47,688 nt of DNA from Minisyncoccia bacterium (GTDB taxonomy: Bacteria; Patescibacteriota; Minisyncoccia; SW-4-49-11). The notes below the pieces were generated by a model that saw only the letters and a program-made list of their open reading frames with translations, made no database searches and had not been told where the DNA came from. The position numbers were made by a program, and so were the translations under genes. The stretch lies in NCBI GenBank assembly GCA_044341565.1, contig JBIIRM010000008.1, forward strand, positions 1 to 47,688, written 5' to 3'. This document shows, piece by piece, positions 10,089 to 47,512 of this stretch. The first letter of the stretch is position 1; each line of letters opens with the position of its first letter.

Positions 10089-10410
10089 CCAAGGAGAATG
10101 GTAATCGCGCATATCCATATATATGGTGAGTGAGGAAAGTCTGGACACCTATTACTTTGTAATAAATGATAGTGGGTAATACCCACCATTGAGCTTGCTC
10201 AATCGGGATAGTATCGCAGAAACAAGACATTTGAGTATATCTCATCTAAGGTGAAAAGAGATAAACCCTATCAGGTGCAAGGCCGTGCTTTTCTGTATTG
10301 AAAAGAGTGCCGCCAAGAATATGCTGGTAACAGTATATCAAGATAAATGATTACCTATGTATATTTGCTTGCAAGTATGCATAACAGAATCCAGCTTATA
10401 TTCTTCTTGG
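10089..10410 (+). ncRNA. rnpB: RNase P RNA (bacterial type)
   Basis: The 390-nt gap is ORF-free. It contains GAGGAAAGTCTGGACACC (P4 5' strand, cf. consensus AGGAAAGUCCGGGCUCC) and ACAGAATCCAGCTTA (cf. ACAGAAnCCGGCUUA). AAGGTGAAAAGAG and GAAAAGAGTGCCGCC resemble the P10-12 elements. The 5' CCAAGGAGAAT pairs with the 3' ATTCTTCTTGG as P1. Confidence 0.75.
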
Positions 10411-10435
10411 ATAATTCTATAAACAATTACTATAT

Positions 10436-17453: not shown

Positions 17454-17956
17454 TTTCCACCCCTTTCCCTGCTACCCCTCAATTTATCTCCCGTAGGGAG
17501 AGAGGGGAATTAGCTAAGTCCACACCCGTCGACTTTGTCGACACCCTCGCCGGCGAGGCCTGCCTGCGGTAGGCAGGGACAGTTTTATTGTCCTCCCTTG
17601 GGGGAGCTTTGGTTCCTCCTATATTTGTTTAGGAGGGGGTGCCCGTAATAGACTGAAGGTCTGGGAAAGGGGTCGGGAAAACAGAAGTTTTCCCGTGGAG
17701 GAAGGTTGGGAAACCGTGAGGTTTCACAGGAGCAAATCCCATTTGCGACGGGGGAGGGAGGATAGAGTTTAAGTTTGTATTTTATCCACCCCGTCCAGCA
17801 AAGCTGTCCACCCCTCAAGAGGGGAATATATACAATGTACTGTCCTAAAAATTCCCCTCATGGGTTGTGAGTAGATAGGAGTCAGTATATAACAAAGTGC
17901 TTTGTCCGAAAAATTCCCCTCTTGAGGGGTGCCGTCGCTAGACGGCGGGGTGGAAA
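17454..17956. repeat. GC-rich hairpin-module element, copy A (largest)
   Basis: A ~500-nt G/C-rich island in AT-rich DNA packed with perfect short palindromes: GTCGACtttGTCGAC, CTCGCCGGCGAG, GCCTGCCTGCGGTAGGCAGGG, GGACAgttttatTGTCC, CCTCCCttGGGGGAG, CCTCCTatatttgtttAGGAGG, GGGAAAACagaaGTTTTCCC, CCCCTCaagaGGGG (twice), CGCCGTCgctaGACGGCG. Its core (17663-17755) is shared with copies B and C. The termini TTTCCACCCC (17454-63) and GGGGTGGAAA (17947-56) are inverted. Confidence 0.55.
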
Positions 17957-30061: not shown

Positions 30062-31408
30062 ATGGCAGGGAATAATTCTCTTGATTCATTTACCAAAAAT
30101 CGCAACGTAATTATTATTGCTGGTGTCGCTATATTAGCTATTGTTATATTGATGCTTGGTAATGCGCTTGGATTCAAAATTGGAGGTGAGAAAAAAGTAC
30201 AAAAAGCAAATTTGGTAGTATGGGGAGTCTGGGATGAAAGTGAGACAATGACGAAATTGGGAAGTGATTTTCGTAAAATATATCCTAATGTAAGTATAGA
30301 ATATCGTAAATTCAAGCCACAAGATTATGAGACAGAACTTATTAATGCTTTAGCTGAGGGACGAGGTCCAGATATATTGGCAATGGAGAGAACTTGGCTT
30401 GGTAAACATAAGAATAAGTTAGCCCCAATGCCAGAAGAAATTATGACACTCAAAGAGTATCAAGATACTTTTGTAGATGTGGTTAATCAAGATTTTATTG
30501 ATGAGGGTAAAATATATGGATTCTCTCTATACACCGATACTTTAGCATTATTATATAACAAAGATGCTTTTAATGATGCTGGAATTGCAAATCCACCAGT
30601 AACTTGGGAAGAATTACAAAGTATAGTACCCAAATTAACTAAAATAGATCAATTTGGTGAGATTAAACAGGCGGGAGTTGCATTAGGTACAGGAGATAAT
30701 ATAAATCGTTCACCAGATGTTTTGATGGCATTAATGTTACAGTCTGGAGCTCAATTTACTGACCCTAAAGATACTAGTAGAATTACTTTTTCTCAAAGTA
30801 AAAATGTCAATGGACAAAATATAAATCCTGCTCAATTATCTTTAGCTTATTATACCGATTTTGCTAATCCTCGAAAAGGAGTATATACCTGGAATTCAAC
30901 CTTAAATAATTCAATAGATGCTTTTTATGAAAGAGAAGTTGCTATGATATTTGGATATTCATATCAGGTAGAAGCAATTAAAGCAAAAGCCCCAAGACTT
31001 AATTTTGCAGTAGCTCCTCTCCCTCAGGTATCTACAGATTCTGGCCTTGCTAATTTTGCAAATTATTGGGGATATGGAGTAAGTGGTCAATCTAAATACC
31101 CAAAAGAAGCCTTTGCATTCCTCAAATCAGCCACTGAAAAGGAAAATGCTCAAGAGTATTTCTTGAAAACCAAGCGCCCAACAGCCAGAAGAGATTTAGT
31201 AGATACACAATCACAAGACATTGATTATGGAGTATTTGTAAAACAAATATTACAAGCTAAAACCTGGAGACAACCCGATAATAATTCAGTAGATAAAATA
31301 TTTATCAATGCTATTAATGGAGTAAATTCAGGATTACTTGACTATAGTAAAGCTATTTCGCAAGCTCAAACAGAAATACAGACATTAGCTGATAATGTGA
31401 AAAAATGA
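30062..31408 (+). CDS. extracellular solute-binding protein (ABC-type, family-1 carbohydrate-binding like) with N-terminal membrane anchor
   Basis: N-terminal TM anchor. LVVWGVWDE...Y...FEK and overall length and composition typical of SBP_bac_1. No permease or ATPase genes are adjacent. Confidence 0.7.
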   Translation: MAGNNSLDSFTKNRNVIIIAGVAILAIVILMLGNALGFKIGGEKKVQKANLVVWGVWDESETMTKLGSDFRKIYPNVSIEYRKFKPQDYETELINALAEGRGPDILAMERTWLGKHKNKLAPMPEEIMTLKEYQDTFVDVVNQDFIDEGKIYGFSLYTDTLALLYNKDAFNDAGIANPPVTWEELQSIVPKLTKIDQFGEIKQAGVALGTGDNINRSPDVLMALMLQSGAQFTDPKDTSRITFSQSKNVNGQNINPAQLSLAYYTDFANPRKGVYTWNSTLNNSIDAFYEREVAMIFGYSYQVEAIKAKAPRLNFAVAPLPQVSTDSGLANFANYWGYGVSGQSKYPKEAFAFLKSATEKENAQEYFLKTKRPTARRDLVDTQSQDIDYGVFVKQILQAKTWRQPDNNSVDKIFINAINGVNSGLLDYSKAISQAQTEIQTLADNVKK

Positions 31409-32730
31409 AATATATAAAGTTCAGTATAGTTTTTGGTATAATATTCTTAGTAGTTTCATTTTTTAGTATTAACTATACTAATGCACAGAGTGCAGATGGA
31501 GCTTGTAGTGCAGGGGCAACATCATTAGAGCAAAACTGTACTTTTCAAAATGGAAGCTCTCGTTTAAATGGAAAATGCCAGGTTAAAGATAAAAATAATC
31601 CAGGTTTAGGATTAACTTGTCGTACTAGCTTAGGATCATCCTGCTCAGGTGATACTTGTCAAAATGGATTAGCCTGTATTAATCAGGTTTGTTCCAGTCC
31701 AAGAGGGGCTAAAACTCAAGGTCAATCTTGTTCAGGGAATGGAAATGAATGTATTGCAGGTCTTGAATGTAGAAATTTTATATGTACAAAAGAAGCTGCC
31801 ATTACTGGTGGAGGGTCTGGGCAAACTGGAGGTGGTCAAGTCGGTACCCCTGGAGGCTCAACAGGGGCAGAAACAGGCCTTGTTAAATGTGGAGTGAGTC
31901 GAGATTGTACTATTTGTGATATATTTATCTTAATTCGAGATATCTTTAATTTTGCTTTAGGGCTACTAGCCTCACTCGCGGTATTAAGTGTTGTTATTGG
32001 TGGGGTCTATGTGTTGACTTCAGCAGGTAATCCTGGAGCGGTAAGTACAGGATATGGCATTATTACCAATGCAGTAATTGGACTATTACTCGTAATGGCA
32101 AGCTTTCTCTTATTTAGTTTCCTTCTTGTGGGGCTTGGATTTCAAGAACAAAATTTCTCAGCTGTACTTACTTTTCAACCAGGTAAAGTATTCGAGGTAA
32201 AATGTGATAATGCTAGTACTTTTAATGATAATGGATCAAATGGAGGAGGGTCTGCTGTACTGGGTAATGGTGGGAGTAACTCATCAACTATAAGTTGTGC
32301 GAGTTTAAATGATTCGGTTAAGGCGGATTTAAATAATGCTAGTTCTCAGACGGGTGTTCCTTCTGAACTATTGGCTGGAATTATGCAAAGAGAATGTCCT
32401 GCAGCCTTTAATAATGCTAATGCTTGTCCAAATGAAAATGGCTCTGGAGCAGCTGGAGCAGGTCAATTTTTACAAAGTAGCTGGAATGAGCTGGGATGTA
32501 GTGGAAGTAGAACGAATCGAAGAGATGCCCTTGTTTGTATGGGGAAACATTTAAAACGGTATAATAAATGTTCTAGTCAATGTAATGGATATTCTAATTT
32601 TTCATCCAGAGCTTGTTCTGATTGTGTGGCAGGAGATTATTGTGGTGCATGTTCAGGTTCATCAGCTTGTGGAGGTAATTATTGTGATGGGGTGTGGAGT
32701 AACTATCAAAAATTTAAAACATGTAAATAA
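31405..32730 (+). CDS. Cys-rich secreted protein: VirB2/TrbC-like pilin hairpin fused to a C-terminal SLT/VirB1-like lytic transglycosylase domain
   Basis: Signal peptide, then a Cys-rich module (many C.G..C spacings). Next comes a pilin-like two-helix region (GGVYVLTSAGNPGAVSTGYGIITNAVIGLLLVMASFLLF) homologous to the downstream small pilins. At the C-terminus SELLAGIMQREC...FNNANA...GSGAAGAGQFLQSSW matches the SLT signature (E-S...GLMQ). Confidence 0.65.
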   Translation: MKYIKFSIVFGIIFLVVSFFSINYTNAQSADGACSAGATSLEQNCTFQNGSSRLNGKCQVKDKNNPGLGLTCRTSLGSSCSGDTCQNGLACINQVCSSPRGAKTQGQSCSGNGNECIAGLECRNFICTKEAAITGGGSGQTGGGQVGTPGGSTGAETGLVKCGVSRDCTICDIFILIRDIFNFALGLLASLAVLSVVIGGVYVLTSAGNPGAVSTGYGIITNAVIGLLLVMASFLLFSFLLVGLGFQEQNFSAVLTFQPGKVFEVKCDNASTFNDNGSNGGGSAVLGNGGSNSSTISCASLNDSVKADLNNASSQTGVPSELLAGIMQRECPAAFNNANACPNENGSGAAGAGQFLQSSWNELGCSGSRTNRRDALVCMGKHLKRYNKCSSQCNGYSNFSSRACSDCVAGDYCGACSGSSACGGNYCDGVWSNYQKFKTCK

Positions 32731-32734
32731 TAAT

Positions 32735-33841
32735 ATGAATAAAATCTTCAGTCTATTTTTACTAATAGCATCTTTCTATTCTATTTCTCCAGTATATGCA
32801 GATACTAGTATATACTCAAGTTTCTTATATCCAAGTTTTGCTGTAAATAATGAAATTTTATATTTTGATCAATATGCAGGAGCTATTGTGAAACAAAATG
32901 TTATTACTGGTGAGAAGTCAGAGATATTTGATTTAATACCTTCTGCTACTAACTTAGTATCAATTTCTCCTGAACAATCTAAAATATTACTTTATCCTCC
33001 TAATATATCATTTCCAAAATATCAAGCACCATTTTTTGATAGTTCAAGAAAATCTCCCGATAATCAATGGTGGGTATATGATTTTAATACAACAAATAAA
33101 ATACTACTAGATGATAAAATTAATTTAGTTGGCTGGTATTCTGATAATGAAATTATATATGTATTTAATAATAAAGATATCACAGTTGCCCCAACCAATG
33201 ACCTATCTAAATTTAATATTCTATACTCTAATATACCATCTAATGTGGATATTAATAAACAAATTATAGCAAATGATAACCATCAAATAATTCCATTAGT
33301 TGATGGTTATCTTGTGGGAAATAAGAAAAACTTTGTATATCAAAAAAGTACTAATTATCAAATTTCAGCCAATCCAAAATTGAATTATTTTTTGGAATAT
33401 AATAATAGTCAGATAAAAGTTTTTGATTGGGATAGTAAGCAAGTAGGTAGTATTATTAATATCAGTAACAGGAAAGCTTTGTTACTGAATAATGATACTA
33501 TAGCTATATTGGCTACAAATGGTAATTTGATACAATATAATTTACAAGGGCAGGAGCAATCAAATGTATCATTAAATCCAATAGTTACTGATATATATTC
33601 GGTTGATCAATCTGGAAATGAACTATTAATTAATCAAAATAATCAAATACGTACTTATAATTTATTAAAAAAAGAGCAGGGAACCATCCTATTATCCACC
33701 AATACTCCTACTCCTAATACTGACACAAATTCAGAGACAGAACAATCCAACACATTAGGGAATATTGCTATTTTAATAGGAGGAATAGTATTCCTTGCTG
33801 GGGGACTGGGGCTATTTATTTGGAAATTAAGAAAAAGATGA
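32735..33841 (+). CDS. secreted repeat/beta-rich protein with C-terminal TM anchor
   Basis: The ATG at 32735 gives a signal peptide MNKIFSLFLLIASFYSISPVYA. A long N/S/Y-rich body follows. The C-terminal anchor is GNIAILIGGIVFLAGGLGLFIWKLRKR. The ORF-track start at 32585 would overlap the upstream gene. Confidence 0.6.
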   Translation: MNKIFSLFLLIASFYSISPVYADTSIYSSFLYPSFAVNNEILYFDQYAGAIVKQNVITGEKSEIFDLIPSATNLVSISPEQSKILLYPPNISFPKYQAPFFDSSRKSPDNQWWVYDFNTTNKILLDDKINLVGWYSDNEIIYVFNNKDITVAPTNDLSKFNILYSNIPSNVDINKQIIANDNHQIIPLVDGYLVGNKKNFVYQKSTNYQISANPKLNYFLEYNNSQIKVFDWDSKQVGSIINISNRKALLLNNDTIAILATNGNLIQYNLQGQEQSNVSLNPIVTDIYSVDQSGNELLINQNNQIRTYNLLKKEQGTILLSTNTPTPNTDTNSETEQSNTLGNIAILIGGIVFLAGGLGLFIWKLRKR

Positions 33842-33871
33842 TATAATTAAAAATAATTAAATACAGATACT

Positions 33872-34711
33872 ATGAAATTAATCATATCTACAGCATTTGG
33901 AATTGTCTTTGCACTAGTATTCTTTAGTAATTCTAATATAACACTTGCTCAATGTGGAAGTGGTCCAAGCTGTACAGGGAATTTTGTTTGTGTGAACGCA
34001 GATGGTACTCCTAAATGTTTGCTAAATCAGGTTAGTAATAATGGTTTATGTGAGGGCGACTCTTCTGTGAAATGTTCAGCAAATCAAGCTTGTATTCAAA
34101 ATAATGCAACAGAAATTGTATGTGCCCCTTTAGCGGGATCATCAGCTAATACAAATTTACCAGGTTCTGGAAGTACAACAACTTGTCCAACCTGTAAATC
34201 TGGTGAAACATGTATTAAGAGTGCAGCAGGACCACTCGTATGTAGATCCGCCGCTACAAATTGTACTCCTGCTTGTACAACAGGTAAGGTGTGTGTTAAA
34301 GCAACGCCAACAGCAACTACTGGAACTTGTGTAGATAATGCGCCTACTCAAGCTGCTGGAGGAGCTGGTGGTAATGGTGCTGGAGGGAATGGATCTTCAG
34401 GAGGAAGTGGTGGTGGCTTATTAGAAGGTCTCAATGCTTTTGGTAGTGCAGATTCTGGACTTAATACAGAGGGAACTCTCATTGGGTTTATTTCTAATAT
34501 TATTCGTTGGATATTAGGACTTCTTGGAACTGTGTTCTTTGTAATCATAGTTTTACAAGGGTATCTTTATATGACATCTTCAGGAGATGCGAGTAAAACA
34601 GCAGCAGCTACGGGGGCTATTACTAATGCAGTAATAGGACTACTGATTATTATGGGAGCTTTCCTCATTACTAATTTTGTGACAAGTGGTTTGATTGCCG
34701 CTGGGTCTTAA
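33872..34711 (+). CDS. Cys-rich/Gly-rich secreted protein with C-terminal VirB2/TrbC-like pilin hairpin
   Basis: Signal peptide, then Cys-rich repeats (C...C.....C), then a G/A/N-rich linker. The C-terminus IIRWILGLLGTVFFVIIVLQGYLYMTSSGDASKTAAATGAITNAVIGLLIIMGAFLI is shared with the paralogs. Confidence 0.65.
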   Translation: MKLIISTAFGIVFALVFFSNSNITLAQCGSGPSCTGNFVCVNADGTPKCLLNQVSNNGLCEGDSSVKCSANQACIQNNATEIVCAPLAGSSANTNLPGSGSTTTCPTCKSGETCIKSAAGPLVCRSAATNCTPACTTGKVCVKATPTATTGTCVDNAPTQAAGGAGGNGAGGNGSSGGSGGGLLEGLNAFGSADSGLNTEGTLIGFISNIIRWILGLLGTVFFVIIVLQGYLYMTSSGDASKTAAATGAITNAVIGLLIIMGAFLITNFVTSGLIAAGS

Positions 34712-34721
34712 TATCTTATAT

Positions 34722-35069
34722 ATGATAGAAGCATTTATATCCAATTTCATCATAGTAACAGCTAAAGCCCAGGAGACATCGCCTCCTCCTATATTAGCTA
34801 TACCTACAGGAACAGGAGTGGGGGAGCAAGGAGATCTGTTTACTTTTGTGTCAGCTATTGTGCAATGGGGATTGGGATTAATAGGGATAGTATTATTTGT
34901 ACTTATACTCTTTTCTGGATTCCAATATGCAACAGCAGGGGGCGACTCTAAAAAAACTGAAGAAGCTATTAGTAGAATTACTTCTGCAGTAATCGGAGTA
35001 TTCATTGTAGGGGTGGCTTTTATACTATCCAATGCAGTATTAGGATTTGTTTTTAGTCTAGGATCTTAA
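34722..35069 (+). CDS. small VirB2/TrbC-like pilin paralog
   Basis: Signal peptide MIEAFISNFIIVTAKAQE. ...IVQWGLGLIGIVLFVLILFSGFQYATAGGDSKKTEEAISRITSAVIGVFIVGVAF. Confidence 0.65.
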   Translation: MIEAFISNFIIVTAKAQETSPPPILAIPTGTGVGEQGDLFTFVSAIVQWGLGLIGIVLFVLILFSGFQYATAGGDSKKTEEAISRITSAVIGVFIVGVAFILSNAVLGFVFSLGS

Positions 35070-35097
35070 TATACTGACTTATCCACAATAGTATCAC

Positions 35098-35126
35098 TTG
35101 CATAGTAATATAAGATATGATAGTAT
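35098..35126 (+). promoter_or_regulatory. sigma70-like promoter (TTGCAT - 17 - TAGTAT) for the pilin gene at 35170
   Basis: TTGCAT at 35098-103, a 17-nt spacer, and TAGTAT at 35121-26. Confidence 0.35.
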
Positions 35127-35169
35127 AAAAACATAGAACATATTATTCAATAATTATTAAGATATTCTT

Positions 35170-35553
35170 ATGAATACTTCCCAGATAAAATCAATAGCAA
35201 CAAGAGCATTATTACCTGTATTAGTATTAGCTCCTACTTTAGCTGGAGCTGCAACTCCCATAAAAGATACTAGAGTCATAGGTGAAATACCTCAAGTAGC
35301 TGGTACTAATCAATCTACTGACCTTGTGGCTACAGTACAAGTGGTTATTCAATGGGCATTAGGATTTATCGGAATTGTAATATTCATTATTTTCTTATTT
35401 GCAGGATTTGAATATGCAACAGCAGGAGGAGATGAAGGAAAAGCAAAAACTGCACAGTCTCGAATGATTAACGCGGTAATTGGACTTATTATTATATTCT
35501 TTGCCTTTGTAGCTTCAAATGCAATATTGTCATTCGTATTCCCAGGAAATTAA
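35170..35553 (+). CDS. small VirB2/TrbC-like pilin paralog
   Basis: Signal peptide. ...VIQWALGFIGIVIFIIFLFAGFEYATAGGDEGKAKTAQSRMINAVIGLIIIFFAF. Confidence 0.7.
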   Translation: MNTSQIKSIATRALLPVLVLAPTLAGAATPIKDTRVIGEIPQVAGTNQSTDLVATVQVVIQWALGFIGIVIFIIFLFAGFEYATAGGDEGKAKTAQSRMINAVIGLIIIFFAFVASNAILSFVFPGN

Positions 35554-35574
35554 TCAAATTGATAGATACTATGA

Positions 35575-35611
35575 AACAATAAAAAGGGATTATATCCCTT
35601 TTTATTGTTTA
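35575..35611. terminator. perfect 16-bp palindrome (AAACAATAAAAAGGGA ttata TCCCTTTTTATTGTTT), likely a bidirectional terminator
   Basis: Exact inverted repeat with a 5-nt loop, 22 nt after the stop of the 35170 pilin gene. Confidence 0.55.
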
Positions 35612-35641
35612 GAGAATACATATTCAAATAGTATAATCTTC

Positions 35642-35670
35642 TTGTCAGATAATAGAATACTTGATATACT
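35642..35670 (+). promoter_or_regulatory. sigma70-like promoter (TTGTCA - 17 - TATACT) for the pilin gene at 35698
   Basis: TTGTCA at 35642-47, a 17-nt spacer, and TATACT at 35665-70. Confidence 0.35.
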
Positions 35671-35697
35671 TGTAATATATAGAATAGTAAAATAGAT

Positions 35698-36114
35698 ATG
35701 AGAGTCTTATTGATTATAATAGCTTTATTGATGGGGGTATTTGTATTAAGTTCTAATATATCTCTAGCTCAAAGAGCCCCTGATGCCACTCTCCCTGGTC
35801 CAGGAACAATCCCAATTAATACCGGAATAGCTGAGGGACCAAGCTTGATAGAAACAGTGTCTATTATTATAAGGTGGATATTAGGATTTATTGGAATTAT
35901 AATATTTATTATATTCCTATATGCAGGATTTGAATATGCAACAGCAGGAGGGGATGAGAAGCAGGCTGAATCAGCTCAAAAAAGAATGGTAAATGCAATC
36001 ATAGGACTGATTATTATATTCTTTGCATTTGTATTGTCGAATGCAGTATTAAGCTTTGTATTTCCTCCAGACGATACAGTAGATGATCCTAATATGCCAT
36101 TAAATGTAAATTAG
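35698..36114 (+). CDS. small VirB2/TrbC-like pilin paralog
   Basis: ...IIRWILGFIGIIIFIIFLYAGFEYATAGGDEKQAESAQKRMVNAIIGLIIIFFAF. Closest paralog of 35170. Confidence 0.7.
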   Translation: MRVLLIIIALLMGVFVLSSNISLAQRAPDATLPGPGTIPINTGIAEGPSLIETVSIIIRWILGFIGIIIFIIFLYAGFEYATAGGDEKQAESAQKRMVNAIIGLIIIFFAFVLSNAVLSFVFPPDDTVDDPNMPLNVN

Positions 36115-36115
36115 T

Positions 36116-36556
36116 ATGAAATATCTATCAATAGTAATAATTGCAATAATGATACTAATGAGTAATCCTTTTATTAGCTTTGCAGGTACCCCATCAGGGG
36201 GAGGAACTACTCCAGCTACGGGTGGTACTCCATCAGGGGGAGGAACTACTCCAGCTACGGGTGGTACTCCCACAACCCCAACTGACAATACTTCTGCTCA
36301 AAGTGTAGGATTTGTGAATCCAATTCGATTTAATTCTATCCCTGAGCTTATAGCAGGTATTATCAATGCTCTCTTGGGTATACTCGGAGCTATTACTGTG
36401 GCAATATTAGTGATGTCAGGATTTAAATATATGACAGCTTCTAATCCAGGAGCAGTAGGGCAAGCTTTAGATGGTATTAGGAATGCAATTGTAGGACTTA
36501 TGATTATTATGGGGGCTTTTCTCATCACACAATATATTATATCTGCTTTGGTGTAA
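36116..36556 (+). CDS. small VirB2/TrbC-like pilin paralog with exact tandem 13-aa repeat in the linker
   Basis: The ATG sits 1 nt after the previous stop. GTPSGGGTTPATG is repeated, encoded by an exact 39-bp tandem duplication (36191-36229 = 36230-36268). The C-terminus is GIINALLGILGAITVAILVMSGFKYMTASNPGAVGQALDGIRNAIVGLMIIMGAFLI. Confidence 0.7.
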   Translation: MKYLSIVIIAIMILMSNPFISFAGTPSGGGTTPATGGTPSGGGTTPATGGTPTTPTDNTSAQSVGFVNPIRFNSIPELIAGIINALLGILGAITVAILVMSGFKYMTASNPGAVGQALDGIRNAIVGLMIIMGAFLITQYIISALV

Positions 36557-36612: not shown

Positions 36613-37323
36613 TCAGCGAGCTTGTATCACTGGGTATCCAGATTGCCCACCTGGCATCTTCTGGTAATATTCATAATCATTATTAACATCTGCTCCGATA
36701 TTAAATTTCCTTTTAATATCGGGAGTATATTGTTTACCAAATACTCCTAGGGATATTTTGATCCTTTTCCCAGAAAGTGATGAAGGTAAATCGTGGCATT
36801 TAGCGTAAGGCTCAATAACCCTCCAATTGTCACCAATGGTAACCTCTTGATTTATCCAGTGTTTCTCTGGATGGCCAGTCTGTTTGAAGCAGACCTTGAG
36901 AGGTCGTGCTGGGAGATCATACTCACCATCACGATTGATCACGATGGGAGTCATTTCCCCGGGGGGATTGAGTTGTGCCTGCCTTGCACTATGTATGCTC
37001 TGGTTGAAGTTAGCTGAGCAATAGTTCAAGAGGAGAATTACTCCAATCACAGTAGCAGCAAACCTGAGCTTGCTATTGAGTACCGCTGCAATTATAGTAA
37101 TGGCCATCAAAAAGAATATCTCACCATCAGAAATACTTCCTCCGATGAGAATCATTTTGGCCCCCAACCAAAGACCAGCCAAACTAATCAGTAAAACTGA
37201 CCAGTTCAGTCCGCGAGCTTTACTCCACAAATTCCCAGAACTTGCCGGAGATGGGGAGGAGTTTGTGGATGATGAGGTGTTTGAGCCTCTAGATCCACGG
37301 GACCCGTATTGACGATTTGTCAT
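36613..37323 (-). CDS. hypothetical membrane protein (Ser-rich N-terminus, ~3 TM helices, C-terminal soluble domain)
   Basis: Clean ORF. Its G+C is visibly higher than the flanking pilin genes. It has its own promoter and terminator. Confidence 0.6.
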   Translation of the reverse strand: MTNRQYGSRGSRGSNTSSSTNSSPSPASSGNLWSKARGLNWSVLLISLAGLWLGAKMILIGGSISDGEIFFLMAITIIAAVLNSKLRFAATVIGVILLLNYCSANFNQSIHSARQAQLNPPGEMTPIVINRDGEYDLPARPLKVCFKQTGHPEKHWINQEVTIGDNWRVIEPYAKCHDLPSSLSGKRIKISLGVFGKQYTPDIKRKFNIGADVNNDYEYYQKMPGGQSGYPVIQAR

Positions 37324-37346: not shown

Positions 37347-37377
37347 TATATATAGCATATTTTAGGTAAAATGTCAA
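37347..37377 (-). promoter_or_regulatory. sigma70-like promoter on the minus strand (TTGACA - 17 - TATATA)
   Basis: Reverse complement of 37347-37377 reads TTGACAttttacctaaaatatgcTATATA, ~20 nt upstream of the start at 37323. Confidence 0.45.
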
Positions 37378-37389
37378 TATTTATAGACA

Positions 37390-37417
37390 ATAAAAAAGCC
37401 GTGACATTGTCACGGCT
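37390..37417 (-). terminator. rho-independent terminator (AGCCGTGACA tt GTCACGGCT + T-run on the minus strand)
   Basis: GC-rich 9-bp stem followed by TTTTTT on the minus strand, 18 nt past the 3' end of the SPFH gene. Confidence 0.6.
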
Positions 37418-38460: not shown

Positions 38461-38578
38461 TTTGTGAATGAACGAGGGACTTCTTATTCATAACACAAAA
38501 TCATAAATTTGTCAACTCATAATAACAGGTGTATATACATAAAATTATTCCGACTCAGGTCAATGAGTACTTATAATG

Positions 38579-38775
38579 TCCTCCCTTGGGGGAGGTGGGG
38601 AAAGGGGTCGGGAAAACGAGAGGTTTCACAGGAGCAAATTTTATTTGCGACGGAGGAGGATAATTCAAAAAGTCCACACCCACCGCTAACGCGGTACCCC
38701 CTCGCCAGCGAGTGACAGATTTAATATCCTCCCCCGGGGGAGGATAAAATAGTACAGGCGACTGAAAGGTCGCCC
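38579..38775. repeat. GC-rich hairpin-module element, copy B
   Basis: CCTCCCttGGGGGAGG, then a core (38597-38660: GGGGAAAGGGGTCGGGAAAACGAGAGGTTTCACAGGAGCAAATtttATTTGCGACGGAGGA) that is a deletion variant of copy A's core. Then AGTCCACACCC, CCCTCGCCAGCGAG, CCTCCCCCGGGGGAGG, GGCGACtgaaagGTCGCC. Confidence 0.5.
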
Positions 38776-38821
38776 CTACAAAATTGATAATTCACAACTA
38801 TTACTTCATCTCAACCTTGTA

Positions 38822-38850
38822 TTGACAAATAGCACTATATATACTACAAT
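38822..38850 (+). promoter_or_regulatory. sigma70-like promoter (TTGACA - 17 - TACAAT) of the rpsL-rpsG-fusA operon
   Basis: TTGACA at 38822-27, a 17-nt spacer, and TACAAT at 38845-50, ~80 nt upstream of the rpsL ATG. Confidence 0.5.
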
Positions 38851-42099: not shown

Positions 42100-42122
42100 G
42101 GTATATACTCACTATAGGTAAT

Positions 42123-42216
42123 CCTCCTCCGTTCCTCCTATATATAATAGGAGGAACACCTCCCCCCAAGGGAGGACAGAAATTTTGTCCCTCGCCAGCG
42201 AGGGACAATAATACGT
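42123..42216. repeat. GC-rich hairpin-module cluster, copy D (hairpin modules only, no long core)
   Basis: TTCCTCCTatatataatAGGAGGAA, CCTCCCcccaaGGGAGG, GGACAgaaattttGTCC, GTCCCTCGCCAGCGAGGGAC. These are the same modules as copy A but in a different order. Confidence 0.45.
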
Positions 42217-46308: not shown

Positions 46309-46563
46309 TCAGTCAGGCTCATAGAATGCACTGGAGTAGGGGAGGGCTTCAGTAAGGTTGAATGCCTCTTTTCGAGACATGGAGTTCAATTGCCGTGTGC
46401 GACAACAGCTACAGAATCTTCCATTTTGTTCGAATACCCGCACTTCTCCATGAACTCGAATGTGGATATCTGCGCCTACCCAGCGTGAGACTTGATTTGT
46501 GCAATTAGGCGTTGCACATGGGGCATTGAGTACATAATCAAGAATCCGATCAAGAAATGACAT
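46309..46563 (-). CDS. small Cys-rich (zinc-ribbon-like) hypothetical protein
   Basis: 84 aa; C..PNC ... C.CC cysteine clusters. It is GC-richer than its surroundings. A plausible minus-strand promoter (TTGACA-17-TATGGT) lies at ~46585-46613. Confidence 0.45.
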   Translation of the reverse strand: MSFLDRILDYVLNAPCATPNCTNQVSRWVGADIHIRVHGEVRVFEQNGRFCSCCRTRQLNSMSRKEAFNLTEALPYSSAFYEPD

Positions 46564-46635
46564 GACAGAAAGTCGAGTTTACAAAAATAACCATACCATA
46601 TTTTTGCAAAAATGTCAATATGTATAAACAATTTA

Positions 46636-46890
46636 TTATTTTGTATATATAAATCTCTGGATAGCAAGAGTCGACCAAAGTATAACTGATATCACGGTCA
46701 CAGCAGTAGATAACCAAAGTTCGAGAGAAGCAAAAGATAAACCAATTGCAGTTAAAGACAGAGCATAAGGAATAGAAGTCCAATAGCGAACTGGTCCTAT
46801 TTTGGTCTTAAAGCCCAATACAACCTGAGGTATCAGAGATAGGGAAATAATAATGCTCGCAATAGTAATAACAATATCTTGTATATTCAT
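46636..46890 (-). CDS. SemiSWEET-like PQ-loop sugar transporter (3-TM, 84 aa)
   Basis: Three hydrophobic helices. TM1 ends in LSLIPQVVLGFKTK (the PQ-loop motif), comparable to bacterial SemiSWEETs (..FLPQV....TK). Confidence 0.6.
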   Translation of the reverse strand: MNIQDIVITIASIIISLSLIPQVVLGFKTKIGPVRYWTSIPYALSLTAIGLSFASLELWLSTAVTVISVILWSTLAIQRFIYTK

Positions 46891-46974: not shown

Positions 46975-47060
46975 GGAGAGTTCGCATAGTTGGTCTAGTG
47001 CGCACGCTTGGAAAGCGTGTATACCGCAAGGTATCAAGAGTTCGAATCTCTTACTCTCCG
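46975..47060 (+). tRNA. tRNA-Ser (anticodon GGA), class II with long variable arm
   Basis: Acceptor stem GGAGAGT/ACTCTCC. D-stem GCAT/GTGC. Anticodon stem CACGC/GCGTG with loop TTGGAAA (anticodon GGA). Variable arm ATACC-GCAA-GGTAT. T-stem AAGAG/CTCTT with loop TTCGAAT. Discriminator G. CCA is not encoded. Confidence 0.85.
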
Positions 47061-47068
47061 CAAAAATT

Positions 47069-47100
47069 AAAAATAGGGGTTTTTGCCCCTATTTTTAATT
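47069..47100 (+). terminator. hairpin terminator after tRNA-Ser (AAAAATAGGGG ttttg CCCCTATTTTT)
   Basis: 11-bp inverted repeat immediately downstream of the tRNA, followed by a T-rich tail. Confidence 0.5.
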
Positions 47101-47131
47101 TCCGTGAGTTAGTAAAGAGAAATTCGAACTC

Positions 47132-47303
47132 GGGAAGGGGTCGGGAAACGGAAGTTTCCTGTGGCGGAAGTAATCAATACCCCTAGATAGGAAGGCAATG
47201 AGGAGCTTGCTCCGAATGTCGGAAACCGTGGGTGTCCGAGATGGGGTTGTAGGGGTATTGAGGGAACTGAGGGGGTTTCAAAGAGCAAATCCCATTTGCG
47301 ACG
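47132..47303. repeat. GC-rich hairpin-module element, copy C (core split by ~100-nt insert)
   Basis: GGGAAGGGGTCGGGAAACGGAAGTTTCC ... GGTTTCAAAGAGCAAATCCCATTTGCGACGAG; these are the same core ends as copies A and B. Confidence 0.5.
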
Positions 47304-47324
47304 AGTTCGGAATCTCTTACTATC
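47303..47324 (+). repeat. direct repeat of the tRNA-Ser 3' end (att-like)
   Basis: GAGTTCGGAATCTCTTACTATC at 47303-47324 matches the tRNA T-arm/acceptor segment GAGTTCGAATCTCTTACTCTCC (47038-47059) at 20 of 21 aligned positions with one 1-nt indel. Confidence 0.55.
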
Positions 47325-47512
47325 TATATTCCGACACTCGGGAATAAATCCCTCGCTGCCTTCCTGCACGGGGGATTTTGCCTTCATACATACGATGTAT
47401 GAAATCCTGAAGGAGTTATTTAGATTCAAACTTCATTTTTAATTGGACTAAATAAATTTTAGTTGGTATTCTATTTATTAGGTGGTATATCAGTTAATCT
47501 AAAAATAATTTT

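Follow-up and report, generated by a model that had tools for sequence, protein, structure and literature searches.

Four GC-rich intergenic islands of a Minisyncoccia bacterium as probable clusters of nested, non-autonomous palindromic repeats

The stretch of DNA analysed here (the window) is the 47,688-nucleotide (nt) contig JBIIRM010000008.1 of a Minisyncoccia bacterium (assembly GCA_044341565.1). Four intergenic islands in it are rich in G+C: island A (17454-17956, G+C 0.517), island B (38579-38775, 0.543), island D (42123-42216, 0.511) and island C (47132-47303, 0.535), against 0.351 for the window. These islands are probably clusters of lineage-specific, non-autonomous, nested palindromic repeats of the repetitive extragenic palindromic (REP), bacterial interspersed mosaic element (BIME), REPIN or miniature inverted-repeat transposable element (MITE) type. 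The family is apparently undescribed: full-text literature searches returned no REP-, BIME- or MITE-like families described in the candidate phyla radiation (CPR)/Patescibacteria, whose genomes are small, streamlined and generally thought to be repeat-poor. A modular MITE- or REP/BIME-like nature had been suggested in an original prediction made from the letters of the window alone, and it is supported by strain variability, nesting, inverted doublets, many copies, the absence of associated genes and location in spacers upstream of promoters.

The difference in composition that had been noticed at the outset (51-54% against 35.1% G+C) is real, and when the whole window was scanned, all the hairpin modules then listed were confined to the islands: GGACA-n7-TGTCC (2 copies), CCTCC..GGAGG (3), TCCTCCTATA..AGGAGG (2), CTCGCCRGCGAG (3) and GTCCACACCC (2). 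The islands, which make up about 2% of the window, contain 9 of its 18 GC-rich perfect hairpins (stem of at least 6 bp). An unbiased repeat search recovered two shared families, namely a 54-nt stretch common to 17704, 38606 and 47257, and a 24-nt module common to 17583, 38571 and 38719. A conserved core had been proposed in three islands; a covariance model of this core (about 88 nt, three hairpins), trained on 42 distinct copies, matched the window exactly three times, always on the plus strand: copy A (17663-17750, 117 bits, E 8e-30), copy C (47131-47303, 59 bits, E 8e-14) and copy B (38588-38652, 47 bits, E 2e-10). Copy B, described as an internal-deletion variant of copy A, indeed has a deletion between the near-identical hairpins P2 and P3, and its orthologue L081 has the full 88 nt. 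Copy C, described as a split core, is the 83-nt form known from orthologues L016, L139 and L144 with a nested module of about 85-89 nt; orthologue L104 carries a 172-nt form like copy C. Every island was also said to yield spurious open reading frames (ORFs); this holds for the single case given, the minus-strand ORF 47109-47429, which lies wholly within copy C and its flanks and is judged spurious.

The islands are composed of a limited set of blocks. The T-module consists of hairpin 1 (GTCCTCCC-TTGG-GGGAGG), a short hairpin 2 (GGCC-GTGA-GGCC or CCC-GTAA-GGG) and a repeat of the 3' arm (GGAGGAGGAYA), and the m1 module has the same design with CCCCTC/GAGGGG. Both are three-part modules of about 35-45 nt, which often form inverted doublets around an AT-rich spacer; the class-1 doublet, based on nine aligned copies, is a forward T-module, an AT-rich spacer of about 55 nt and a reverse T-module. 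The other blocks are a 20-nt mini-hairpin, the S module, a REP-like GTAG-palindrome, module M (about 130 nt) and the three-hairpin core (83-108 nt). Blocks occupy one another's loops: the 20-nt hairpin is found in the hairpin-1 loop, the core in hairpin 2 and module M inside the core. The stem of module M shows a compensatory change between copies (AATCCCCC/GGGGGATT vs AATACCCC/GGGGTATT); with respect to core and tRNA, either orientation of the module is found, and T-modules likewise occur in both orientations. Three settings of the core were distinguished: nested in a T-module with a small leader hairpin in front (class 1), the same with one more hairpin, GGTC-AAA-GACC, between tandem G.A pairs (class 2), and directly downstream of a tRNA gene (class 3). 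When the modules were tested for a conserved GTAG or GTGG head, one of them (CAGGCGAC..GTCGCC-CCTAC) proved to be GTAG plus a palindrome on the opposite strand, and the others had no consistent head. The 10-bp inverted termini reported for island A are real and are explained by the two oppositely oriented m1 modules that bound it, of which they are the outer arms.

The sites of the islands are empty, minimal or filled in closely related strains, as was found with ten contigs whose S12 protein is identical to that of the window and which are about 96% identical across rpsL-fusA. In the fusA-mgsA spacer, L110-L113 have 87-88 nt free of modules, the window has island D (a reverse T-module and a hairpin), L114 has a forward T-module and an S module and shares its right end with the window, and the modules of L116 make up a third combination; no target-site duplication is seen in this comparison. 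The SPFH-rpsL spacer is empty in L111, contains GGTGGGGGAGGA alone in L113 and a minimal, coreless T-module with a REP-like unit in L110, and the window adds the core and three more modules to the L110 set (island B). Five different states of the tRNA-Ser flank exist among the strains, and no strain with an empty tRNA-Ser(GGA) flank was found. Concerning island A, L134, the closest of four fmt-bearing loci from a metagenome scan (65% identity), has a different, smaller module set in the same spacer; exact-protein look-ups (def, fmt and an 84-aa ORF) returned the same strain only. The most direct comparison is that of L144 and L076, whose sequences around one doublet share more than 97% identity, two exact indels being the sole difference: a 20-nt hairpin in the hairpin-1 loop, with no clear junction duplication, and a 104-nt unit (leader hairpin and core) in hairpin 2, whose junction repeats only the 2-3 nt CG(A). 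It follows that modules are discrete units which are gained or lost inside hairpin loops without classical target-site duplication.

In L139 (reverse complement of 1700-2520), a coreless T-module doublet with about 85 nt of AT-rich DNA lies in the tRNA-Ser(GGA) promoter region, flanked by a direct duplication of about 33 nt, ACTCT(C)TAGTCAATAMAGCAAATATCTGATAAAA; the window version is undisrupted. L132, a 1724-nt contig assembled from short reads of the same strain, breaks off within island A, 171 nt past the fmt stop, which suggests that the repeats break assemblies; nested hairpin repeats with fast turnover would explain such breaks.

The distribution of the family was assessed by scanning the 17-nt 3' motif of the core, AGCAAATNNNATTTGCGACG, over one genome per species (596 Gb). 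The motif was found at 109 genomic loci, with about 70 chance matches expected for 17 fixed bases in 596 Gb, and about 57 loci also carry the rest of the core, all within 12 metagenome-assembled genomes (MAGs). The search of related CPR genomes that had been proposed thus gives at least 57 copies in these 12 MAGs, which are labelled Paceibacteria, Parcubacteria or Minisyncoccia, apart from two labelled Saccharibacteria; one MAG holds at least 15 copies. The covariance model gave 73 matches at E <= 1, 58 of them below 1e-8. At least some of the core-bearing MAGs are close relatives, the EF-G of JBIKVS being 96% identical to that of the window. All core copies are intergenic, and no protein family recurs beside the core in the 53 copies compared. 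Pfam analysis of ORFs that cover most of the window and every island flank revealed no integrase, transposase, reverse transcriptase (RT) or nuclease. Two scans of viral contigs gave chance pattern matches only and no true copy of the core, and a phage origin was rejected on this basis. The 17-nt motif also matches the 3' end of tRNA-Glu (..CCCGAGGGGAGCAAATGATATTTGCGACG..) in Micrarchaeota MAGs (DPANN archaea; L048, L060, L071, L074, L092 and L103), where the T-arm-like fragments CTCGGGTTCGGAAAC and GACGGGTTCGAATAC follow it; these matches were judged to be chance at one conserved locus, which could be an integration site.

The modules are concentrated behind terminators, upstream of promoters and at the 3' ends of tRNAs. 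Island A occupies the space from the stop of fmt to the promoter of the glycosyltransferase gene (17439-17411), and its core is antisense to the two genes; island B is upstream of a strong rpsL promoter (38822-38850) and of the divergent SPFH gene, and island D is between the fusA terminator and the region upstream of mgsA; islands B and D are probably in untranscribed spacers. The fold of the core is conserved: P2, P3 and P4 are maintained by compensatory changes in divergent copies, of which L034 has three and L047 one, and in the model-fitted alignment, which is biased towards structure, 95.9% of cells pair and 22 of the 23 pairs have double changes, a result reached by 0 of 500 shuffles. 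There is also a difference between the strands: the core is on the locally G-rich strand in 34 cases vs 11, and at sites where both neighbours share a direction it is co-directional with them in 19 cases vs 4. The compensatory changes in three stems together with the orientation bias indicate that a single-strand fold, of DNA (ssDNA) or RNA, matters. These signals fit an RNA and a strand-specific ssDNA intermediate alike; intermediates of the latter kind are used by IS200/IS605-type and REP/RAYT systems.

If the fold acts as RNA, the core of about 88 nt with its closing stem would be a multi-copy structured non-coding RNA gene and the surrounding hairpin modules would be incidental, which we consider unlikely; structured sRNA genes were the second reading offered in the original prediction. 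The tRNA-linked form would give a long hairpin RNA that carries the three-hairpin domain at the tip and whose end resembles the acceptor stem of the adjacent tRNA (5'-GGAG...CUCC-GCCA-3'); in L106 the fold prediction has a GCCA overhang at the 3' end. Apart from the covariation in all three stems and the bias towards gene direction, an RNA gene is favoured by the common GNRA loops (GGGA, GGTA, GTGA, GAGA), fold z-scores of -3.2 to -4.1 and 11:2 G.U over A.C cells in a hand-curated alignment; no clear G.U excess is seen in the model-fitted alignment, where mismatches are about as frequent as G.U. Consensus scans gave no promoter whose distance from the core is constant, copy B has divergent promoters on its two sides, read-through from fmt would transcribe the wrong strand of copy A, and no Rfam family matches the islands. 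The copies are moreover dispensable between strains, and deleted stumps are common (copy B of the window, L041 and L141). Those two traits, with the occurrence of both orientations, the inverted doublets, the deletion variants and the placement, speak for a selfish nature at the DNA level.

In class 3 the core is always downstream of a tRNA gene (Ser-GGA, Ser-GCT, Ser-CGA, Gln or Asp) and points the same way as it, and the genes beside these copies are housekeeping genes. Behind the core comes a 13-38-nt copy of the 3' part of the local tRNA, starting in the T-loop (altered: TTCGTAAT, TTCGGAAT or TTCTAAT), the anticodon loop or the acceptor stem. In front of it is an inverted copy of the same 3' part, matched to the tRNA in question: it reads TTTGAAG for a T-loop of TTCAAAT, and TTGGCGGGGACGA at tRNA-Asp, the complement of CCA included. 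The direct repeat is found at copy C of the window and in L016, L034, L043, L047, L058, L104, L106, L139 and L144, and is absent from L141. By an alternative pairing of the inverted copy with the downstream direct copy, the core is placed at the tip of a hairpin. Duplications this long and variable, together with inverted copies matched to the local tRNA, are consistent with recombination, with template switching or with an attachment site on a folded strand, and not with a cut-and-paste transposase.

The tRNA-linked copies might be remnants or miniatures of site-specific integrators of tRNA genes, with the direct repeat as the att core and the core plus inverted copy as a folded attachment site (cf. 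CTX phage attP, an ssDNA hairpin, and integron attC), although we regard this as improbable. Their constant position and direction behind tRNA genes, the copied 3' part and the tandem units with different cargo in L034 and L058 are in favour of it, and the order X-terminator-X'-core-X would be the expected product of one-strand exchange with a hairpin site. Against it, no recombinase domain or integrase is found among ten proteins flanking tRNA-linked copies, which rejects an integrase beside them, and viral contigs contain no copy of the core. The majority of core copies, those of classes 1 and 2, are away from tRNAs and nested in T-modules, the inverted copy matches each local tRNA, unlike the product of simple site-specific recombination, and L141 lacks the direct repeat. 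A bolder and similarly doubtful proposal is that these units are the smallest known tRNA-targeting mobile elements, in which the hairpin duplex copy of the local tRNA 3' end serves as attachment site or as an RNA-level acceptor mimic and is re-matched for each tRNA (Ser, Gln, Asp). Such an element would consist of terminator, inverted tRNA 3' copy, core and direct copy (about 225-315 nt, gene-free); its conserved core would be a recognition or priming domain for a host or other enzyme, and the copies nested in T-modules would be the same core landing on other hairpins. L058 also has, at 1506-1700, a second GC-rich cargo (GGAGCCCGGTGTGAGTTTCCC-TGAA-AGGGAA...GTGAC) between tRNA-Ser(CGA) and the core unit, with an ATTCGAA-type inverted copy in front and a copy of the tRNA 3' end behind; a remote relationship to the core is possible.

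It is also possible that no dedicated mobility is involved and that, in a genome rich in AT, the islands grow and are rearranged by replication template switching with extension of quasi-palindromes, by slippage and by ectopic gene conversion between GC-rich words (GGAGG/CCTCC, GGGG/CCCC); this too we hold to have little probability. The hairpins are extended by inverted copies of adjacent sequence, as in the single palindrome formed by the tRNA 3' end, the terminator and the inverted copy, the direct target duplications are long and variable in length, the deletion in copy B lies between near-identical hairpins, and the L139 insertion includes AT-rich DNA besides the modules. Identical units of 88-108 nt with sharp ends at many unrelated sites nevertheless require prior dispersal, and the covarying stems indicate selection on the fold.

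Several results weigh against reading the islands as repeats of the REP or MITE type. The core has no fixed-length target-site duplication and no consistent terminal inverted repeats, and some insertions are flanked by long direct target duplications of variable length (13-38 nt), for which recombination or template switching is a better fit than a classical transposase. In 0.5-1.0 Mb of related loci a crude regular expression for the HUH-Y1 pattern was unmatched, and tblastn with an approximate IS200 TnpA query found no match. The conserved purine-rich junctions (GGGAAAGGGG, GUGGAGGAAGG and GCGACG), the GNRA- and UNCG-type loops and the orientation bias of the core would also fit a functional RNA. 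Lastly, the orientation and G.U statistics are soft because copies from related MAGs are not independent. If the islands are nonetheless clusters of essentially selfish repeats, these would move or be copied as folded single strands, either by an enzyme encoded elsewhere and acting in trans (HUH/RAYT-like or a recombinase) or by replication template switching between copies, and certain copies could have side effects, for example as terminator-like hairpins.

The REP/BIME/REPIN sequences of proteobacteria are mobilised by RAYT, a HUH-Y1 transposase whose gene typically has copies of the repeats on its flanks. Like them, the repeats of the islands are short, GC-rich, imperfect palindromes, strictly extragenic, lineage-specific and in many copies per genome, which form mosaic clusters of alternating orientation with conserved linkers and inverted doublets around a spacer, and one module consists, on one strand, of GTAG and a palindrome. 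No RAYT gene was found in the 0.5-1.0 Mb of related loci. The repeats differ in the larger number of module types, the nesting in one another's loops, the 88-nt three-hairpin unit with covarying stems, which has no REP counterpart, and the host, which belongs to the CPR and has a genome that is rich in AT and presumably small. MITEs (Correia/NEMIS of Neisseria, RUP/BOX of Streptococcus, Nezha of cyanobacteria) are likewise non-autonomous, 50-500 bp long, form long hairpins and show insertion polymorphism between strains, and BOX elements are also modular. The islands share with MITEs the non-autonomy and the polymorphism and not the terminal inverted repeats with fixed target-site duplication; no terminal inverted repeats match a known insertion sequence, units are as small as 20 nt, and insertion is into hairpin loops and not at a sequence motif. 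The GC clusters of yeast mitochondrial DNA are hairpin modules of high GC content dispersed between the genes of a reduced, AT-rich genome; they have either orientation, include nested or recombinant forms and have no known transposase. The islands appear to resemble them as GC-rich intergenic hairpins which are nested and in both orientations, and differ in the domain of life, the unrelated sequence, the larger multi-hairpin core and the tRNA-linked form. With tRNA-targeting integrative elements, CTX attP and attC, the class 3 units share the targeted tRNA 3' part, the direct repeat bounding the insert, tandem accretion and the hairpin duplex of the target; they are unlike them in the small, gene-free unit (about 225-315 bp), the lack of a nearby recombinase and the inverted copy re-matched to the local tRNA.

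The tRNA-mirroring units are the most novel part, and they and the insertion of loop into loop deserve the most attention; both point to a mechanism of mobility or copying beyond classical transposase models, and mitochondrial GC clusters pose the same question of mechanism. The repeats would also provide strain-level markers for freshwater Paceibacteria and would supply regulatory or terminator variation beside the core genes rpsL, fusA and tRNA-Ser.

Island A starts with a reverse terminal m1 module (17454..17511, minus strand), which reads TTTCCACCCC ... CCCCTC, a nested hairpin and GGGGAATT; the nested part (17481-17503) is the 20-nt hairpin TCTCCC-GTA-GGGAGA with an AT tail. This module recurs in forward orientation in L007, L046 and L049, with and without the nested hairpin. 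The S module follows (17512..17593, plus strand) with AGTCCACACCC, a GTCGAC-TTT-GTCGAC hairpin and CTCGCCGGCGAG, then the hairpins CCTGCCT..AGGCAGG and GGACA-n7-TGTCC; the same module order is found in island B (38664-38719), L114 and L081. The 5' part of a forward T-module (17590..17662, plus strand) contains hairpin 1 (GTCCTCCC-TTGG-GGGAG), a TTCCTCC..AGGAGG hairpin, GCCCGTAA and the leader hairpin TAGACTGAAGGTCTG, and aligns to about 30 class-1 copies of other genomes. Within core copy A (17663..17750, plus strand), P2 is CGGGAAAAC-AGAA-GTTTTCCCG followed by the junction GTGGAGGAAGG, P3 is GGGAAACC-GTGA-GGTTTC, and P4 is GCAAAT-CCC-ATTTGC with the tail GACG. The third arm of the T-module (GGGGAGGGAGGATA), an AT-rich spacer and a reverse m1 module (TATCCACCCC-GTCCAGCAAAGCTGTCCAC-CCCTCAAGAGGGGAAT) complete an inverted doublet (17751..17828), whose forward-spacer-reverse layout is also found in nine class-1 copies and L047. 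The right end (17905..17956, plus strand) is a forward m1 module made up of AATTCCCCTC-TTGA-GGGG, CCGTC-GCTA-GACGG and GGGGTGGAAA. On the minus strand, m1 at 17916-17929, and also at 17811-17824, reads CCCCTCAAGAGGGG and then AATTTTT, a terminator-like arrangement directly after the fmt stop; certain modules may have been co-opted as terminators.

Island B consists of a forward T-module (38578..38663, plus strand; GTCCTCCC-TTGG-GGGAGG ... GGAGGAGGATA) with core copy B (38598-38652, the P2/P3 deletion variant) in the hairpin-2 position, and of further plus-strand modules (38664..38779): the S module GTCCACACCC..CTCGCCAGCGAG, the palindrome ATCCTCCCCCGGGGGAGGAT and the REP-like unit CAGGCGAC-TGAAAG-GTCGCC-CCTAC. 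This last unit, GTAG plus palindrome on its opposite strand, is also present in L110, L114, L115 and L134. Island D (42122..42215, minus strand) is coreless and contains a reverse T-module (TCCTCCTCCG / TTCCTCC..GGAGGAA / CACCTCCCCCCAAGGGAGGAC), then a forward GGACA..TGTCC and a CTCGCCAGCGAG hairpin.

Island C belongs to the tRNA-linked form, and its tie to the adjoining tRNA-Ser was missing from the original prediction. On the plus strand, tRNA-Ser(GGA) (46975-47061), a terminator hairpin (about 47066-47098) and the inverted copy of the tRNA 3' end (IRL, 47111-47131) form a single long palindrome (46975..47131). Core copy C (47132..47303, plus strand, 172 nt) is the 83-nt tRNA-linked form with module M nested in it (about 47173-47257), which forms a stem of its own, TCAATACCCC/GGGGTATTGA. 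Next come a degenerate repeat of the 3' end of tRNA-Ser in direct orientation (47304-47325, plus strand, AGTTCGGAATCTCTTACTATCT) and, within 47304..47432, a truncated second module M in the opposite orientation which ends in the IRL-like AGATTCAAACT; L041, L057 and L141 have a complete M module at the same position relative to the tRNA.

Known families were compared with Rfam release 15 (tmRNA, SRP, 6S, HEARO, group I/II introns, ribozymes and others). Only RNase P RNA (10089-10414) and tRNA-Ser(GGA) passed the gathering thresholds in the whole window, at E <= 10 the best values for islands A and C were 0.08-0.24, from unrelated families far below threshold, and ARAGORN found no transfer-messenger RNA (tmRNA) in the window. 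The earlier exclusion of rRNA, tmRNA, signal recognition particle (SRP) RNA and CRISPR therefore holds. A group II intron was rejected, with a sole trace at E = 6.8 and with domain 5 and RT absent, and so was a self-cleaving ribozyme, with no hammerhead-like core by eye and no Rfam hit. TnpB/IscB guide RNAs and IS200/IS605 ends were rejected on the lack of a recurrent gene among the 53 copies and of a HUH-Y1 signal. TIGR and CRISPR arrays were rejected since there are no periodic units and no Tas (Nop-domain) or cas gene among the Pfam-scanned ORFs; the features of TIGR-Tas arrays used for comparison are those in PMC12045711.

The Pfam-scanned ORFs of the window are housekeeping genes or have no hit (glycosyltransferase, fmt, def, SPFH protein, rpsL, EF-G, MgsA); AcrB-like transporter, enolase, FtsK, RecJ and gyrA genes were also assigned, and the ORF between rpsL and fusA is named ribosomal protein S7 in related contigs. 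At 31405-36556 there is a run of paralogous genes with T4SS-pilin-like C-terminal regions, where repeat families D1, D3, D7 and D13 connect 32061, 34618, 35353, 35875 and 36475 and a near-perfect 39-nt tandem duplication is found at 36185-36262; this gene family is also upstream of the SPFH gene in related strains. A 40-nt repeat, ATAGCATATTTTAGGTAAAATGTCAATATTTATAGACAAT, is present at 37352-37391 and 46593-46632 (85% identity); on the minus strand it is promoter-like (TTGACA...-10) and lies upstream of the minus-strand genes 36613-37323 and 46309-46563. The latter and 46636-46890 (minus strand) are two adjacent 84-aa ORFs without Pfam hits; a homologue is named 'protein with PQ loop repeat' in one source, and related strains have one or two copies beside tRNA-Ser. 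The RNase P RNA (plus strand) is of the bacterial class A (140 bits, E 4.5e-43, 38% G+C) with shortened P3/P12-type helices, and its gene is located between recJ and a sugar transferase gene.

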